Assembly: GCA_031367385.1 (NCBI GenBank)
Contig: JANLPS010000016.1
Span: 1-10,781, forward strand
Direction of reading: 5' to 3'
Length of the DNA: 10,781 bases
From: Archangium sp.
GTDB taxonomy: Bacteria > Myxococcota > Myxococcia > Myxococcales > Myxococcaceae
Part shown: positions 78 through 10,781 of the stretch, piece after piece
Numbering within the stretch: position 1 is the first letter of the stretch
How the letters are laid out: the number at the start of each line of letters is the position of its first letter
Made by a program: the position numbers and the translations under genes
The notes under the pieces: generated by a model
What the model was told of the DNA's origin: nothing
Seen by the model: only the letters and a program-made list of their open reading frames with translations
Database searches by the model: none

Positions 78-500
78 TCAGGTGTGGCTCAAGAATTCGA
101 TCAACCCCTCGGGGTCGATCACCGAGACCGACCCCACCGGCGCGGTCGCTGGCCCACGAAAGTGTGCTCGCACGCCCGAGTCAGAGAGCCGGTCGAACGA
201 ACCGGTCAGCGTGGCTACGCCATTGACCCGGGTGGCGGTCAGCGCCATCACACCCTTCGCCACCCGCACCAGCACGGCCCGCTTCGCCCCCGCCTCGCTC
301 TTCACGCCGGTCAGCGTGGCGAGGTCGATGACGGGCAAGACTTCTCCACGGTGCGCGAACACGCCCAGCAGGTGTGGCGGAGAGCCTGGCACCTTCGTCA
401 ATGACGGCAGATTCACCACCTCGGCCGCGGTCTCGGAGGGCACCGCGTAGAGGCTGCTGCCACAGGCGAAGACGAGATGTCCTCTCGGCGCGTCGGCCAT
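78..500 (-). CDS. cheW: CheW-family chemosensory coupling protein (140 aa)
   Basis: HLVFACGSSLYAVPSETAAEVV...LTKVPGSPPHLLGVFAHRGEVLPVIDL matches the CheW pattern (VP..P..LLG..N/HRG.V.PV.DL). I moved the start from 653 to the ATG at 500 because the upstream extension is Cys-rich, non-CheW-like and overlaps the divergent promoter region. Confidence 0.9.
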   Translation of the reverse strand: MADAPRGHLVFACGSSLYAVPSETAAEVVNLPSLTKVPGSPPHLLGVFAHRGEVLPVIDLATLTGVKSEAGAKRAVLVRVAKGVMALTATRVNGVATLTGSFDRLSDSGVRAHFRGPATAPVGSVSVIDPEGLIEFLSHT

Positions 501-651: not shown

Positions 652-2019
652 ATGAACCGCGTTCTCGTGGCAATGGTGATCGCTGCTCATGCCATCGCCG
701 CCGAGCCGGCGAAGGTCTACCGGGGCAAGAAGATGTCGCTCGACCAGGTCAACGGCGACGTCTCGAAAGTGCTCACCCAGATCGCCACCGTCGCAGGCCG
801 CAGCGTGGTGGTGCTCAGCCCGCCGCGAGGCCCCATCACGCTCCACGTCAAAGACCAACCGTGGGACAAGGTGCTCGACGACGCGGTGGCGCAAGTTGGC
901 TTGGTGGCGCACCGCGAAGGCAGCCTCATTCTGGTGGGCACCACTGGGGCCATCGAGGCCCATCACGGTACGAAGTTCATTGGTAAACGGCTGACCGTCG
1001 AGCTGCGTGACGCCGATGCCCAGACAGCGGTGGCGGCGCTCTCGGCTGCGGCGGGCCTCCCGGCTCCGGCGGTGTCGGGCGGGCGAACGCTGAGCCTGGC
1101 GATCAAGAACGCGCCGGTCGATCAAGAGCTTGACCTGGTGCTCGCGGTGTCAGGTGCGCATCGGGTCGACGCTGGGGCGCTGGCACCACCCTCGTCAGGC
1201 TGCGCTGCCGCCACGACCGAGCTCGCAGACCTGCGGGTCACCGGAGTCGTCGTCGGTTCTGCGACGCCCACGGCGGTGCTCGCCGACACCCACGGCCATT
1301 CTTGGGTCTCGCAGCTGCAAGGCTGCGTCGGCAAAGAAGGCGCCGTCACGAAGCACGTCTTGCGCGGAGGCGTCGTGCTCGGCTTCGACAAGCTCGAGGT
1401 TCGGTTGGAGATCGAGCCGGGCTCGCTCGCTTTGAAGGAGGTCGCCGACGAGACCATCGACGCGACTGAGATGATTCGGGCGATCGACGCGACCCAGCTC
1501 GAGCTCACTGCGGCCGAGCGCAGCGGGCTGGCCGAGAAGCGGTTCTTACTCGCGCTGGGCCGCGACTTGTTCGATTCGCCCAACTTCGTGCAGCCGATCG
1601 AGGCTGACCCCCGCGCGCGATTGCTCGAATGGCCACAGACCTATGCCGAGACGCTTCAGCTGCAGGTCGAGATGGTGCCCGACCTGACGGCCAACCGGCA
1701 GCTCGCCAAGCGCACGTTGGCGACGGTCGATCGCGCGGGCTGGCATCGCACCGGTTTTCTGCTCACCTGGCTGTGCGCCCAAGCGGCCGACCGCGCGGCG
1801 CTGCTGGTGGCGCTGACCAATGAGGTCGAGACCGGCATTCGGGTGCTGAACAGCGAGAAGTCGCAAGGGGTCGACCCTGAGCTCGTCGAATCGACCGCCT
1901 ATTTGCTGAAGCTCGCGGCGAGCCATGGGTTGACTGAGTCAGAGCTCGGGCCGCTGCGAAGGCGCTTCGATGCAGCGCTGAAGAGATTTCGCGCGACGCA
2001 AGCACCTCCGGCCAAGTGA
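652..2019 (+). CDS. Exported protein: signal peptide + two PilQ-like N0/STN domains + PilP-like domain + helical C-terminal region (455 aa)
   Basis: Signal peptide ends AHAIA-AEP. YRGKKMSLD...ITLHVKDQPWDKVLD and FIGKRLTVELRDAD...LSLAIKNAPVDQELDLVL both resemble the PilQ N0 domain. LADLRVTGVVVG..TPTAVLAD..GHSW.....VGKEG..T.....GVVL resembles the PilP C-domain. Confidence 0.75.
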   Translation: MNRVLVAMVIAAHAIAAEPAKVYRGKKMSLDQVNGDVSKVLTQIATVAGRSVVVLSPPRGPITLHVKDQPWDKVLDDAVAQVGLVAHREGSLILVGTTGAIEAHHGTKFIGKRLTVELRDADAQTAVAALSAAAGLPAPAVSGGRTLSLAIKNAPVDQELDLVLAVSGAHRVDAGALAPPSSGCAAATTELADLRVTGVVVGSATPTAVLADTHGHSWVSQLQGCVGKEGAVTKHVLRGGVVLGFDKLEVRLEIEPGSLALKEVADETIDATEMIRAIDATQLELTAAERSGLAEKRFLLALGRDLFDSPNFVQPIEADPRARLLEWPQTYAETLQLQVEMVPDLTANRQLAKRTLATVDRAGWHRTGFLLTWLCAQAADRAALLVALTNEVETGIRVLNSEKSQGVDPELVESTAYLLKLAASHGLTESELGPLRRRFDAALKRFRATQAPPAK

Positions 2020-4199
2020 TCGACCTGGCTGAACCAGAAGCCGCCGCCCTGAAGCACCCACGCGCCCTTCTCCCACGTGGCTGTGAAGGAGCCACCGATG
2101 CCACCTTCGCTCCAGTCGATTTCAGCGCGGGTCTCGGTTTCATCGAGCAGGTACGAGACCAAGAGCACCGCGGTGTACCCCTGCGCCGAGAGGTAGCGTT
2201 TCAATGAAGCCTCGCTGAGCACCACGAAGTGGCCTCGAGCGGTGACGGTCGCGTAGTCGGCCGGGTCTCCCACGAGCACATGAAAGGGTCCGTCTTGCAC
2301 GCTGAGCACCGCCGAGACCAGCTGCGAACGCCTCGGAGGTGCGGCCTTCGAGCGGGCGACCTGGGGGAAAGCGTCTTCAGCGTCGCTCAAGCCGTCGCCG
2401 TCGGTGTCGATGGAGCGCGGGTCGGTCAGCAGTCGGGCTTCGATGAGGTCGGTCAGCCCATCGCCGTCGCGGTCTTGGGTCAGCTCGCTCAGGCGCGCTT
2501 CGACGAAGAGCCCAGAGGCCTCGCGGGGGTACCTCGTGAACAAGGGAGGGTACGTGATGCTCTGGTGATCGAGCTGGCGAACGAAGACCTCGAGGCGTAC
2601 GCGATCGCCGGTGATGAAGGGCAAGGCCGAACGCCGGGCGACGAGGTAGGGCTGCAGCGCGCGCAGCCCGGTGTAGATGGGCGCCTGCCAGTGCTGGCCC
2701 CGATCAATCGAGTGAATCAGCCAGTAGCCGCCCGATGACACCTCGAAGACCGGGTCGAAGCGCTGCGACGAGGCCAGCACCCAGACCTCTCGCCCTTCAC
2801 GCTGCAGGCGAATGGGCTTGAGGTCTCCTGGGAGCCCTTGGAGCTCGGTCAAGACGTCGGCATCTTCGAGCGCGGCCACCGCGACGCCTTGAGGCATGGG
2901 GTGCTCCTGCCAGACTGACGGCCTCGGCAGGTCGAGGAGCGGGTCTGAAGAGGCGGAAGATGAGGCGCTCGCAGGCAGCTTCGCGAGCTCGGCACGCTGG
3001 GCGCTCACCTCGCGATCACGGGCCTCTGCGATGCGCTGGGTCGCCTCCGCCAAGAACGCCTGAGCCACCAGTGGCTCAGGGGGAGAGACAGAGCCTTCGA
3101 GCATTCGGCGGGCCCGCTCGGGCTGTTTCAGGGCGATCGCCTTGGCGAACAACCGCGGCACGCCCACAGAGAACAGGCACCCATGCGAGCCGGCAATCAG
3201 CTCGAACGGGTCGACGGCGCGGCGCTTCTCGTCTCGTGCTCGCAGCAGCAGCTCGCTCGAAACATTCTGCCCGCAGTCGGTGGTGCTCCAGTCTCCCACC
3301 GAGGGTGACGGCGCGAGCTCGAGCGAGAGCGCCTGATCGCCATCTTGCGCCGCGAGCAACGCCAGCTGAAGCGCAGTGACCTTCGACGGAGGAACGAGCA
3401 GCGCGGCCCTTGTCGGGGCCGAGGCCTCCTTCCACAGCTCGAGCGCGAGACCCGGGAGCTCTTCAGCGAGCGCACTCGCAATCGCGTCGCGGCGCAGCGC
3501 CACCAGCAGCGGGTTCGTCGGCTCTGATTTTTCTCCGGCGGCCAGCAGGGTGAGCATCAGCGCCAGGGAGGCGCCCTTTTGGGTCAGAATCGGCGCGACG
3601 TCGACCCAGGCGAGCGGGTCATCGCGCAACAACGACGAGACCGCGAGCGCTTGAACCGCGGGGCCACAGCTCAGCATCTCGTTCGCGAGGGTGGTTCGAT
3701 CGGTGGAGGTTCGCAACACGCGCTCAAGCAGCGGCAGCAGCCCCTCGCCGTAGAAACAGGTGGCGCCGATCAGGGCCAGCTTGACCTCACGTGCGCTCGA
3801 GGCCGCGAGGGCCTGCTCGAAACGGGCGGTCTCCCAGGCGGTCTGCTGGGCGCGCGTCGATGTGTCGAAGCTGAAGCTCAAATAAAAGAGCTCGGTCTCG
3901 AGGAGCGGCGCGGCGGCAGCCAACGGGAGCGCCCACCCCTCGGCGAGCATGACCGCGGCTTCGGTGAACGACGGTGGGTGCTTCGGGTCGACCCGCTCGT
4001 TGAAGATCTGGCACGGGGCGATCATGCCGCGGTTGGCCCATCGTTCGGCCAAGAAGGCGCTCTCGGAGGCGTGGCATCGGTCGCCAAGAACGATGGGGAG
4101 CCAGTGATCGCGATCGAACTGAAGCGGCTGCTCGGAGGGAGGTGGCGCGGCAGGCAGGGTCACGCACGCAGCGAAGAAAATGAAGGGGAGCGCTTTCAC
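1899..4199 (-). CDS. Large putative lipoprotein: helical N-terminal half, Asp-box, thrombospondin-type-3-like Ca-binding repeats
   Basis: GTG start with lipobox-like MKALPFIFFAA-C. Asp-box SIDRGQHW at about 2688-2711 and DRDGDGLTD..E....TDP...DTDGDGLSD.ED at about 2364-2474. The last 42 codons overlap the convergent gene. Confidence 0.75.
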   Translation of the reverse strand: MKALPFIFFAACVTLPAAPPPSEQPLQFDRDHWLPIVLGDRCHASESAFLAERWANRGMIAPCQIFNERVDPKHPPSFTEAAVMLAEGWALPLAAAAPLLETELFYLSFSFDTSTRAQQTAWETARFEQALAASSAREVKLALIGATCFYGEGLLPLLERVLRTSTDRTTLANEMLSCGPAVQALAVSSLLRDDPLAWVDVAPILTQKGASLALMLTLLAAGEKSEPTNPLLVALRRDAIASALAEELPGLALELWKEASAPTRAALLVPPSKVTALQLALLAAQDGDQALSLELAPSPSVGDWSTTDCGQNVSSELLLRARDEKRRAVDPFELIAGSHGCLFSVGVPRLFAKAIALKQPERARRMLEGSVSPPEPLVAQAFLAEATQRIAEARDREVSAQRAELAKLPASASSSASSDPLLDLPRPSVWQEHPMPQGVAVAALEDADVLTELQGLPGDLKPIRLQREGREVWVLASSQRFDPVFEVSSGGYWLIHSIDRGQHWQAPIYTGLRALQPYLVARRSALPFITGDRVRLEVFVRQLDHQSITYPPLFTRYPREASGLFVEARLSELTQDRDGDGLTDLIEARLLTDPRSIDTDGDGLSDAEDAFPQVARSKAAPPRRSQLVSAVLSVQDGPFHVLVGDPADYATVTARGHFVVLSEASLKRYLSAQGYTAVLLVSYLLDETETRAEIDWSEGGIGGSFTATWEKGAWVLQGGGFWFSQVDHLAGGACVARNLFSAASKRLRSGPSSDSVNPWLAASFSK

Positions 4200-5442: not shown

Positions 5443-6384
5443 ATGCGGCTTGGCTTTGGCGGCGTGCTTCTCGGGTTGGCGACATCGATCATTGGGTGCA
5501 CAGGCAGCGCGTCTGCGACGGCGGTCGAGAGCACGGTCCTCACGGGTGCTCCTGAGGTGGTCGGAGACGTCGGTGATTCGGCGCCCGCCCCCCAGATGCC
5601 CACTGCGGCGAATGAGCCGGTTGATGCTGGCCACCAGTCGGTCAGCCCCGTCGCCACTGACACCGGGCTCACCGGCGACCTCGCGCTCGGGTCGACCCTT
5701 CGCACCACCACCACCTTGAACCTCCGCACCGGGCCTGGCACCGAGAACAGCGTGCGCCTGGTGCTGCCTGACGGCGCGAACGTTCTCACCGTCAACGTCA
5801 GTTCGCCCGAAAACGGCTGGTACAACGTCTCGTACAATGGTGTCGAAGGGTGGGCGTCGGGCAAGTACCTCGAGCTCGTCAGAGGCCCTGTCACCGACCC
5901 GACCGTGCGTGACCTGGCCATCGCTCGCGCCCAGGGCGGCGTGGGCTTCTCGTACTGGTGGGGCCACGGGAGGTGGATACCCTCGGGCGCCACCTCGTCG
6001 AGCATCGGCAGCTGCACCGGCAATTGCCCCAGCTGTACCCACAGCGGCAGTTACGGCGCCGACTGCTCTGGGTACGTCGGTAAAATCTGGGAGGTGCCCA
6101 GCAGCAACACCGACCCCCAGAGCGACTCGCACCCGTACAGCACCATTTCGTTCAACGGCAGCAACGCGCAGTGGTCGACCATCGACCGAGCCGCACTCAA
6201 GAGCGCCGATGCGCTCGTCTACAACGTGAACGGCTCGGGCCACATCTTCATCTATGAGTCAGGTGATGGCTGGGGCTCGATCTGGGCGTACGAGGCTCGC
6301 GGCTGTGCGTATGGCATCGTGCACAACCTGCGAACCGCGGGCACGGCGTTCAAGGCGATCACCCGCACCGGGTACTCGAACTAA
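5443..6384 (+). CDS. Lipoprotein with SH3b domain and NlpC/P60-like peptidoglycan peptidase domain (313 aa)
   Basis: Lipobox SIIG-C19. SH3b: TTLNLRTGPGT...GWYNVSYNGVEGWASGKYL (about 5704-5877). NlpC/P60 motifs: SYWWG, ADCSGYV (Cys208), ADALVY, GHIFIY (His267) and YEA (Glu284). Confidence 0.85.
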   Translation: MRLGFGGVLLGLATSIIGCTGSASATAVESTVLTGAPEVVGDVGDSAPAPQMPTAANEPVDAGHQSVSPVATDTGLTGDLALGSTLRTTTTLNLRTGPGTENSVRLVLPDGANVLTVNVSSPENGWYNVSYNGVEGWASGKYLELVRGPVTDPTVRDLAIARAQGGVGFSYWWGHGRWIPSGATSSSIGSCTGNCPSCTHSGSYGADCSGYVGKIWEVPSSNTDPQSDSHPYSTISFNGSNAQWSTIDRAALKSADALVYNVNGSGHIFIYESGDGWGSIWAYEARGCAYGIVHNLRTAGTAFKAITRTGYSN

Positions 6385-9208: not shown

Positions 9209-10447
9209 ATGACGATTCGATTGCTCCACGCTGCTGATCTGCACCTCGACAGCCCGTTCGCGCTGCCGACGTCGACGCGCGCGCCGCTCAACGCCACGCT
9301 CGAGGCGTTCTCGAATGCGGTCACCATCGCCCTGCGCGAGCGGGTCGACGCGGTCGTGCTCTCAGGTGACCTCTACGAGCGGCGCGATCGCTCGGTTCGG
9401 GCGCGGTTTCACCTACAAAAAGAGCTCGACCGGCTGCATGCCGCGGCCATTCCCTCCTTCATCGTGCATGGCAACCATGACCCCCTCGCTGGCGACCCTG
9501 GCGGAGTGCAGCTGCCACCGTCGACCACCGTCTTCGGCGCGTCGTGGGCCGAGCACCCGGTGGTGCGAAACGGGGCCGTGCGGTTTCGCGTGCAGGGCAT
9601 CAGCTTTCAAGAGGCGCAGGTGACCGAGAACCTGTCGCGGCAGTTTCACCGGGTGGGGCCCGAGCCGACCATCGGGGTGCTCCACTGCAACGTCGGGGGG
9701 CACGGCGCGCATGCCGATTACGCCCCTTGCTCCGTCGACGATCTCGCTGCGTCTGGGCTCGATTATTGGGCCTTGGGGCATGTTCATACCCGCCAGACGC
9801 TGGCCCTTCGCGGCGGTGGCGTGGCGGCGTACCCGGGCAATACCCAGGGCCGGCAGGTGAATGAGACCGGGCCCCGCGGGTGCTTGCTGGTCGAGCTCGA
9901 TGAGACCCGAGAGCGGCCGCCCCGGGTGCAGTTCATGCCGTGCGATGTCGTTCGCTGGCATCGGGTCGAGCTCGATCTGTCGGGGGCCGAGACGCTCGAC
10001 GGGGCGATTGAGCTGCTCGAGCGGCAGGTCGACGAAGTCACCGGCGATGGCGGCGTGAAGCACCATGTGGTTCGGGCGGTGCTGACGGGCCGAACCGTGC
10101 TGCATCGGCAGTTGACCCCGGCGGCGTTGAGCGAGCTCGAGGCGACCCTGGTCGAGCGCTGGGCCCATCGGCCGTTGAGCTTAGAATCATTGCGCTCTTC
10201 GACGGCGGCTCCGTTCGACGTGCCTCGGCTGGTGGCGTCGGGTGGGCTCGCCGGAGAGATCGCCAAGGTGATCGCGCAGCCGATGAGCCCGGCGACCCGC
10301 GAGGGGTTGTACGCCCAGGCAGGCCTCGGGGCGATGCAGGCTCAGCTCGACGCCGCCAAGCTCGGCGCCATCGGCCCATCGCCCGAGCTGCTCGAGCAGG
10401 CGCTCTTTCGAGCCCTCGAGCTCGTCACCTCGGAGGACTCTGCGTGA
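9209..10447 (+). CDS. SbcD/Mre11-like metallophosphoesterase DNA repair exonuclease (YhaO-like)
   Basis: All five phosphoesterase motifs are present: HAADLHLD, SGDLY, HGNHD, VLHC and LGHVH, followed by YPGNTQGR..NETG.RG, which is typical of the YhaO group. Confidence 0.93.
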   Translation: MTIRLLHAADLHLDSPFALPTSTRAPLNATLEAFSNAVTIALRERVDAVVLSGDLYERRDRSVRARFHLQKELDRLHAAAIPSFIVHGNHDPLAGDPGGVQLPPSTTVFGASWAEHPVVRNGAVRFRVQGISFQEAQVTENLSRQFHRVGPEPTIGVLHCNVGGHGAHADYAPCSVDDLAASGLDYWALGHVHTRQTLALRGGGVAAYPGNTQGRQVNETGPRGCLLVELDETRERPPRVQFMPCDVVRWHRVELDLSGAETLDGAIELLERQVDEVTGDGGVKHHVVRAVLTGRTVLHRQLTPAALSELEATLVERWAHRPLSLESLRSSTAAPFDVPRLVASGGLAGEIAKVIAQPMSPATREGLYAQAGLGAMQAQLDAAKLGAIGPSPELLEQALFRALELVTSEDSA

Positions 10448-10781
10448 GCCCGGCCCGCAAGACCGTCATCGAGTCGCTTCGGGTCGACGGCTTCGGCCGG
10501 TTTCACGACTTCGAGCTCGAGCTGGGCGAGGGTCTCAACGTGCTCTGCGGGCCCAATGAGGCTGGCAAGAGCACGCTGTGGAGCTTCATCTCGGCGATGC
10601 TCTTCGGGTTCGAGCGCCGCACCGAGGCCAGCCGGTACGAGCCAGTGGGCGGCTCGGCGTTCGGGGGCGAGCTGCGGCTCAAGACGGTTGGCGGCCGGCT
10701 CGTGGTGCGTCGGGGCGCGCTCGTGTTGACTGTCCAGCCGATGCTCTCGTTCGACGGCAAGTCGCCCGACCGGTTCTGGAC
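10444..10781 (+). CDS. YhaN/Rad50-like AAA ATPase, N-terminal part only (not in the supplied ORF track)
   Basis: GTG at 10444 overlaps the upstream TGA (GTGA). It translates MSPARKTVIESLRVDGFGRFHDFELELGEGLNVLCGPNEAGKSTLWSFISAMLFGF...YEP..G..FGGEL, with Walker A GPNEAGKST at 10549-10575, and stays open to the window end. Confidence 0.9.
   Translation, partial: MSPARKTVIESLRVDGFGRFHDFELELGEGLNVLCGPNEAGKSTLWSFISAMLFGFERRTEASRYEPVGGSAFGGELRLKTVGGRLVVRRGALVLTVQPMLSFDGKSPDRFW

Follow-up and report, generated by a model that had tools for sequence, protein, structure and literature searches.

The window, that is, the whole 10,781-nucleotide stretch of DNA analysed here, carries a gene whose product joins two domains of the PilQ N0 type and a PilP-like domain in a single chain (Table 1). 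In an earlier, sequence-only reading the gene was ended at position 1413 (aa 254); the frame in fact continues to 2019 and encodes 455 aa, a helical tail of about 200 aa having been overlooked. All three proteins in the 90% cluster of the fusion are 455 aa in length, the gene is spanned with zero differences by contigs of two sequencing runs (X1 and X2, which are possibly the source DNA itself), and codon-position GC is equal between the core and the tail. The start of the protein is signal-peptide-like, as had been claimed, with a hydrophobic 9-mer scoring 3.1, an A-x-A motif and no lipobox by hydropathy and motif check, and a TM segment is absent from the protein (maximum 19-mer hydropathy 1.43).

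Table 1. Extent and parts of the fusion gene and position of its divergent neighbour, in window coordinates
Feature	Position	Strand	Description
Whole fusion gene	652..2019	+	455 aa: signal peptide, N0a, shortened N0b, PilP-like domain, helical tail
Putative cleavable Sec signal peptide	652..702 (aa 1 to ~17)	+	Without lipobox; hydropathy and motif check
N0a	715..963	+	PilQ-type N0/STN (aa 22-98) and linker helix (aa 98-104)
N0b	973..1167	+	Degenerate second N0 (aa 108-172); Ala-rich first helix, last strand absent in model
PilP-like beta domain	1201..1413	+	aa 184-254; C184 at 1201-1203, C225 at 1324-1326
Optional helical tail	1426..2016	+	aa 259-455; terminal three-helix bundle
Divergent cheW	78..500	-	Leading gene of a conserved che cluster; chance neighbour outside the element

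A sigma-70-like promoter was not found within positions 400-2200. The 3' end of the fusion gene (1899-2019) overlaps by 121 bases a convergent ORF on the minus strand (1899-4199), which encodes a probable lipoprotein of 766 aa with a TSP3-like repeat, its weak similarity to CglD/MtsD being confined to the repeat. Elsewhere in the window, the gene at 5443-6384 (+) encodes an SH3 domain followed by a further region, which we take to be a probable NlpC/P60-like cell-wall hydrolase, and that at 9209-10781 (+) a Mre11/SbcD-like metallophosphoesterase followed by an AAA_27/Rad50-like ATPase that is cut by the contig end. A family scan of the other nine window proteins identified no pil genes, in agreement with the earlier reading. 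The divergent gene is indeed a cheW (PF01584, 6e-20), but the suggestion that its linkage to the fusion may be meaningful was rejected: in five of five other carriers of the fusion the cheW orthologue is located elsewhere, at a distance of 2 Mb or on a different contig, and the genes upstream of it differ, and the adjacency is therefore attributed to chance.

Residues 22-98 of the fusion were assigned as a PilQ-type N0 domain (N0a) by sequence profiles (TIGR02515, 1.4e-11; 4ar0, 2e-6) and by comparison with the 4ar0 structure (Z 11.0, rmsd 2.8, 84 residues aligned), while the STN match of the full protein, at 9e-6, falls short of the Pfam cut-off. The second unit (N0b) repeats N0a (hhalign 97.3%, E 2e-11), so that the earlier description of two similar PilQ-like units is borne out; it stops one strand early in the model, ending at E170-172. 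The fold of N0a is that of the PilQ secretin N0 (PF07660 STN; TIGR02515; 4ar0, 3jc8), with the linker helix retained, and N0a is 29% identical to the N0 of the host PilQ. Unlike PilQ, the fusion has a duplicated N0 with a shortened second copy, is devoid of AMIN, N1/N3 and barrel domains, and is encoded outside pilMNOPQ. The same periplasmic docking fold occurs outside secretins in the STN signalling domains of TonB-dependent transducers and anti-sigma factors (6ovm, 4m0h, 5odw; Z 8-10); in contrast to these, the fusion is PilQ-type in sequence and has neither a transducer barrel nor a linked sigma/anti-sigma pair. A Pfam scan of the protein revealed no TonB-dependent barrel or anti-sigma domain, and linkage to an ECF sigma factor is not conserved among the family neighbours examined. 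Pairing of strands between N0a and N0b, which was hinted at by the 5odw alignment ranges, proved too inconsistent to be of use.

Comparison with 45 PilQ N0 domains indicates that, on the face that binds PilP, N0a of this copy no longer carries residues that are nearly invariant. Position 42 is arginine and position 46 aspartate or glutamate in 44 of the 45 in each case, and positions 32 and 43, which align with GspD interface residues named in the GspC-GspD study (PMC3169554, excerpts), are hydrophobic, whereas the fusion carries T42, T46, Q32 and Q43. Most members of the fusion family do keep the PilQ-like helix-1 residues (R42 in 15/22, D46 in 17/22), a retention that would fit docking in cis or binding to a real PilP alike.

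The third unit had been described as PilP-like, and this description is upheld. Residues 184-254 matched M. xanthus PilP (3jc8_Pa) with an E value of 0.074 when the query was used alone and of 1.5e-5 when a family profile of the domain was used; the same profile matched an alignment of 30 myxobacterial PilPs at 94.3% (E 1e-7). Fold comparison returned PilP (2y4x, Z 6.4, rmsd 2.8 over 73 residues; 2ivw, Z 5.8) and GspC-HR (3oss_C, TM 0.79 of target, rmsd 1.7 over 62 residues), but since the Z values are middling by themselves the sequence profile is decisive for the assignment. A Pfam PilP match was obtained for 5 of 22 family members (best 0.0019), the query not being among them. The beta-sandwich fold and sequence profile are thus common to the fusion, PilP (PF04351) and GspC-HR. 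In contrast to PilP, the fusion is without a lipobox and without the flexible N-terminal region that binds PilN/PilO, the conserved YxYxPxGKRDPF motif of which is absent, and the domain is fused behind its own ligand domain. Seven residues (C184, C225, G227, A208, W71, D72 and L84) are invariant in 22/22 aligned family members, and C184 and C225 are predicted to form a disulfide. Pfam matches to the secretin barrel (PF00263), Secretin_N/N1/N3 (PF03958) or AMIN (PF11741) were absent from the fusion at E<=0.1 and the C-terminal part is helical, consistent with the claim that the protein is barrel-less. Membership tests accordingly place the fusion as neither a secretin (its TIGR02515 score is 44 against a cut-off of 284) nor a PilP.

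An AlphaFold model of the three-domain core attained a pLDDT of 91.4 and a pTM of 0.84 (pLDDT 89-91 over five models), which argues for fixed packing of the domains, and the core is hence predicted to be one compact unit. With the tail included, pLDDT was 86.0 and pTM 0.66, with a low-confidence joint at residues 257-262, so that the helical domain at 259-455 looks like a separate, appended one. Structural matches to the tail in the full-length model are generic three-helix bundles (Z up to 9.5 over aa 377-453). The tail gave no match in Pfam or in the Atlas, and, searched alone, none in 200 other genomes of the class. Tails are present in 6 of 29 family members, in a common position and with a few shared motifs, their similarity being weak by hhalign (P 0.006, 0.0085 and 6e-5). 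The dN/dS ratio of the tail (0.33-0.70) suggests that it is under constraint too.

The distribution of the fusion was examined next. A search of 1.84 billion representatives returned 623 matches, the majority to N0 only; 21 of these are proteins of 247-284 aa that match the core, and they were aligned with the query (22 rows). The working family set (n = 29) additionally includes tailed, partial and N-terminally extended forms. A hydrophobic N-terminus was found in 24 of 25 family proteins and a lipobox-like motif in one of 25. Profile searches, with six candidates scored per genome, detected the family in 6 of 401 genomes of the phylum, host included, in 5/23 genomes of genus g6 and in 4/121 of the family to which genome G416 belongs; carriers total 12 myxobacterial genomes, with G415 included. 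The fusion family is small, with about 29 intact, signal-peptide-bearing relatives, and is patchy and fast-changing in myxobacteria. In a search for longer, barrel-bearing forms, 7994 candidates yielded only two ordinary PilQs, which counts as weak evidence, and no locus turned up when metagenomes were scanned with the query.

Neighbourhoods were scanned at 12 loci in the 11 other carriers. Among 88 ORFs (35 scanned at E<=1e-5 and 53 at E<=1e-8, with some loci on short contigs, and with a few short ORFs and the ORFs of L031 that repeat L029 skipped) pil and che families were absent, the neighbours being housekeeping enzymes, kinases and unknowns. A prophage origin was considered and rejected, four family proteins giving no PHROG match. 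In the host genome, contig C547 carries an intact pilMNOPQ; three other secretins are encoded as well, and a profile search detected no second copy of the fusion. Besides the fusion itself, the N0 profiles matched only PilQ in the host (1e-15) and the PilP-like profile only PilP (2e-5). All carriers that were checked have pilP or pilQ; across Myxococcota in general, PilP was found in 125 of 151.

Relative to the pilP-pilQ operon, the domains (N0-N0-PilP) stand in reverse order, indicating that the fusion is not the result of operon read-through. The possibility that it represents a degraded pilQ fragment is excluded by this reversal together with the intact family with dN/dS below 1 and the full pilMNOPQ of the host. 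The PilP of a second lineage (lineage B) has the same cysteine pair as the fusion: pairs matching C184/C225 are present in the operon-encoded PilP of G415, G485, G486, G505 and G416, and a C[VLIA]G motif occurs in 29/29 lineage-B PilPs (taken as the best 30 matches to one query, with one genome left out), 0/30 PilPs of the host's order and 0/36 PilP matches from other families. We take lineage B to be Kofleriaceae-like and the host Myxococcaceae-like. A C...DCVG pair was seen in the lineage-B operon PilPs at L089, L090, L098, L100, L101 and L105-L134. PilPs of the host's order have a CxxxxC pair just ahead of the domain, in contrast to the lineage-B cysteine solution.

Trees of the N0 and PilP domains, built on 77-79 columns and with long family branches, group both modules with lineage B. 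The family PilP-like domains and lineage-B PilP share one side of a 98/95 branch, apart from host-type PilP, in a tree that omits four family rows on long branches, four paralogous matches and alternate rows of A and B, and whose bootstrap is not fully settled. All 24 family N0a domains are set apart together by a 100/100 branch that joins the tree among lineage-B PilQ, the other 35 PilQs lying beyond a further 100/100 branch; a hold-out restricted to N0b did not discriminate between a single origin and two. Since both modules group with pilP and pilQ of another lineage, and the cysteine pair is shared with the PilP of that lineage, this copy is likely to have been acquired horizontally. The history may have been that of a single fusion event from lineage-B pilP and pilQ, followed by horizontal spread, including to the family of the host. 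The beta1-beta2 hairpin is closer to that of host-type PilP in 12/12 host-side family members; a G-x-A-x-P hairpin is widespread in Myxococcota PilP, and this hairpin type is probably ancestral. The idea that each subfamily tracks the resident pilus machine was weakened on addition of other families, given the widespread hairpin and the placement of the family as one group beside lineage B.

Divergence of the family is rapid. The syntenic fusion orthologues of G485 and G486 are 53% identical, against 96% for the PilP domains and 99% for the PilQ N0 of the same genomes, and in the same-genus pair G000/G001 the fusion is 45% identical versus 92% for the PilP domain. Whole-gene dN/dS (Nei-Gojobori) is 0.38-0.73 over six orthologue pairs and rises to ~1 in N0b of two of them, the true ratios being lower since high GC leads dS to be underestimated; for two near-identical copies in G415 the value was 0.08. 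These values indicate a constraint that is real but loose. The G001 copy (L032:6990-7045) has a 25-base direct duplication that shifts the frame inside N0a, and is either an artefact or a pseudogene.

In the type II secretion system, strand 1 of the GspC HR domain is described as lying antiparallel to strand 1 of the GspD N0, with a contribution from N0 helix 1, and the interface as species-specific (PMC3169554, excerpts). PilP is described as binding PilQ N0 in the same manner, and PilN/O via its flexible N-terminus (PMC3441751, excerpts), while the HR domain of OutB binds secretin N0 by strand addition (PMC9239104, excerpts). Since both halves of such an interface are present in the fusion, and an anchor is absent, the simplest reading is of a soluble, self-capped periplasmic protein. 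It would be exported by the Sec route and its signal peptide cleaved, and the first strand of the PilP-like domain would then pair in cis with the first strand of one N0, acting as a built-in cap. With two N0 units to one PilP-like domain one docking edge would be left free to take up a beta-strand from another protein, the partner probably lying outside the host pilus; the tail could feasibly serve as an exchangeable extra binding surface. We give this reading a little short of an even chance. Docking in cis is suggested by the pTM value, either N0 could be the capped one, and AlphaFold may dock the domains through likeness to solved complexes. Nevertheless, a repurposed module, the last option raised in the sequence-only reading, is the best fit, and was ranked first because of the fast evolution of the fusion, its foreignness to the host machine and the eroded N0a face: a protein dependent on binding PilP or PilQ would be expected to keep to the very slow evolutionary pace of these two, and the fusion does not.

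A further likeness is to the GspB/OutB scaffold of the Dickeya type II secretion system, an accessory protein whose HR/PilP fold engages secretin N0 by strand addition (PMC9239104, excerpts). The HR fold is present in the fusion and the TM segment is absent; whereas OutB is anchored in the inner membrane and to peptidoglycan and is without N0 (PMC9239104, excerpts), the fusion is anchor-less and has two N0 domains. PilO-PilP gene fusions are likewise natural fusions of PilP with another pilus component, but they join inner-membrane partners within the operon (PMC3169554, excerpts), whereas here PilP is joined to a secretin N0 outside it.

It is possible, if on balance doubtful, that the protein instead modulates the assembly of type IVa pili or serves as a soluble decoy for it: the free N0 would bind PilP, or the PilP-like domain would swap onto the N0 of PilQ, titrating the PilP-PilQ link and thereby lowering or tuning piliation. 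The exclusive matches of the profiles to PilQ and PilP in the host genome would be in keeping with this, as would the spare binding site, the retention of PilQ-like helix-1 residues in most members, the finding that lineage-B fusions are most like the resident PilP (17/17) and PilQ N0 (16/16), and the existence of accessory HR-fold proteins that bind secretin N0, such as OutB (PMC9239104, excerpts). However, family loci never adjoin pil genes (12 other loci and the window), the fusion diverges far faster than its would-be partners, N0a is eroded in this copy, and the modules are xenologous to the host machine, while the GspC-GspD interface is called species-specific (PMC3169554, excerpts). The decoy or modulator role put forward earlier accordingly stands as a possibility, weakened by the other-lineage modules, the fast evolution and the lost N0 face residues; it would be more probable in lineage B, where most members appear to keep the PilQ-like face. 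A bolder form of the idea, which we regard as improbable, is that myxobacteria have horizontally spread soluble secretin mimics, with fused halves of the PilP-PilQ interface and a free N0 face, that, by titrating PilP, shut down or tune pilus assembly, with effects on motility, kin interaction or avoidance of pilus phages. Such a mimic would be a host-encoded periplasmic regulator of an undescribed kind, and similar barrel-less N0n-PilP fusions would have arisen several times.

A weakly constrained relic, i.e. a stable, self-satisfied fusion that has little function and is drifting, seems quite unlikely. The high dN/dS ratios, the patchy occurrence and the frameshifting duplication in G001 would suit such a relic, but frames are intact and signal peptides and the two invariant cysteines are retained at 25-36% identity, true dN/dS is lower than calculated at this GC, the tail is constrained too, and the break in G001 could stem from the assembly. 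It is very unlikely that the fusion is a structural adaptor or spacer linking the secretin to the alignment complex instead of or beside PilP, as had also been proposed, because both anchors are missing. The presence of both halves of the secretin-alignment interface would allow for this, and N0-PilP units could conceivably polymerise edge to edge like secretin rings; against it, the protein has no lipobox, TM segment, PilN/O-binding segment or AMIN domain, the host pilMNOPQ is intact, and the fast, patchy evolution is unlike that of a machine part. Conflict proteins are often secreted, disulfide-bearing, fast-evolving, patchy and transferred, as the fusion is predicted or appears to be, but that it is released by the myxobacterium to jam secretins, pilus or type II, in competitors or prey is the least probable reading: the neighbourhood shows neither a delivery signal nor an immunity gene or secretion locus, there is no PHROG match, and the outer membrane of the target would have to be crossed.

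No paper describing an N0-N0-PilP fusion was found in a full-text literature search, in which subscription journals were thinly covered and supplements, which may hold tabulations, lay outside the scope. The fusion is a new architecture of known parts, and its present standing is that of an architecture undescribed in the papers searched as opposed to a new system. A docking model of the PilP-PilQ N0 complex, restrained by NMR data, is available (Berry 2012; PMC3441751, excerpts). If docking in cis is real, the fusion would be a natural single-chain version of this complex, and, being small and soluble, a ready target for crystal structure determination; were it to bind PilP, it would provide a new periplasmic route for pilus regulation. 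The family also illustrates that parts of an envelope-machine interface can be excised, fused, moved across lineages and reused, and the same solution is seen in other lineages, in TPR-N0n-PilP-TonB_C proteins and in N0-PilP fusions of 650-730 aa.

The latter (L171-L174, from G062, G088, G101 and G081 of family f12) are secreted and barrel-less, with N0-like repeats, identified by eye, followed by two PilP/GspC-like domains; in L174 these match Pfam PilP (2e-5 at 578-632) and T2SSC (0.003 at 491-549). They apparently represent an independent N0n-PilP fusion. Barrel-less N0 arrays were also observed joined to M56, TonB_C, TPR, zf-HC2, FGE-sulfatase and VIT domains. Six proteins (P0007, P0014, P0020, P0029, P0041 and P0055) carry TPR and two to four N0 repeats without a barrel, to which some add a PilP-like domain, a C-terminal TonB_C or both, and eight others (P0044, P0047, P0049, P0071, P0090, P0027, P0004 and P0034) have tandem PilQ-type N0 domains with BlaR1/M56 (one with TonB_C), zf-HC2, FGE-sulfatase or VIT/DUF2135. 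Smaller barrel-less offshoots of PilQ recur in myxobacterial genomes, comprising a signal peptide and N0-N1-like domains in ~170-190 aa (L010, L014, L017 and L097), or a signal peptide, a cysteine and a single N0 in ~117-127 aa (L071, L072 and L095). Finally, a further host ORF (G000:C440) encodes a signal peptide, one divergent N0-like domain matched at E 0.004 and, after it, a helical and a beta-repeat region.
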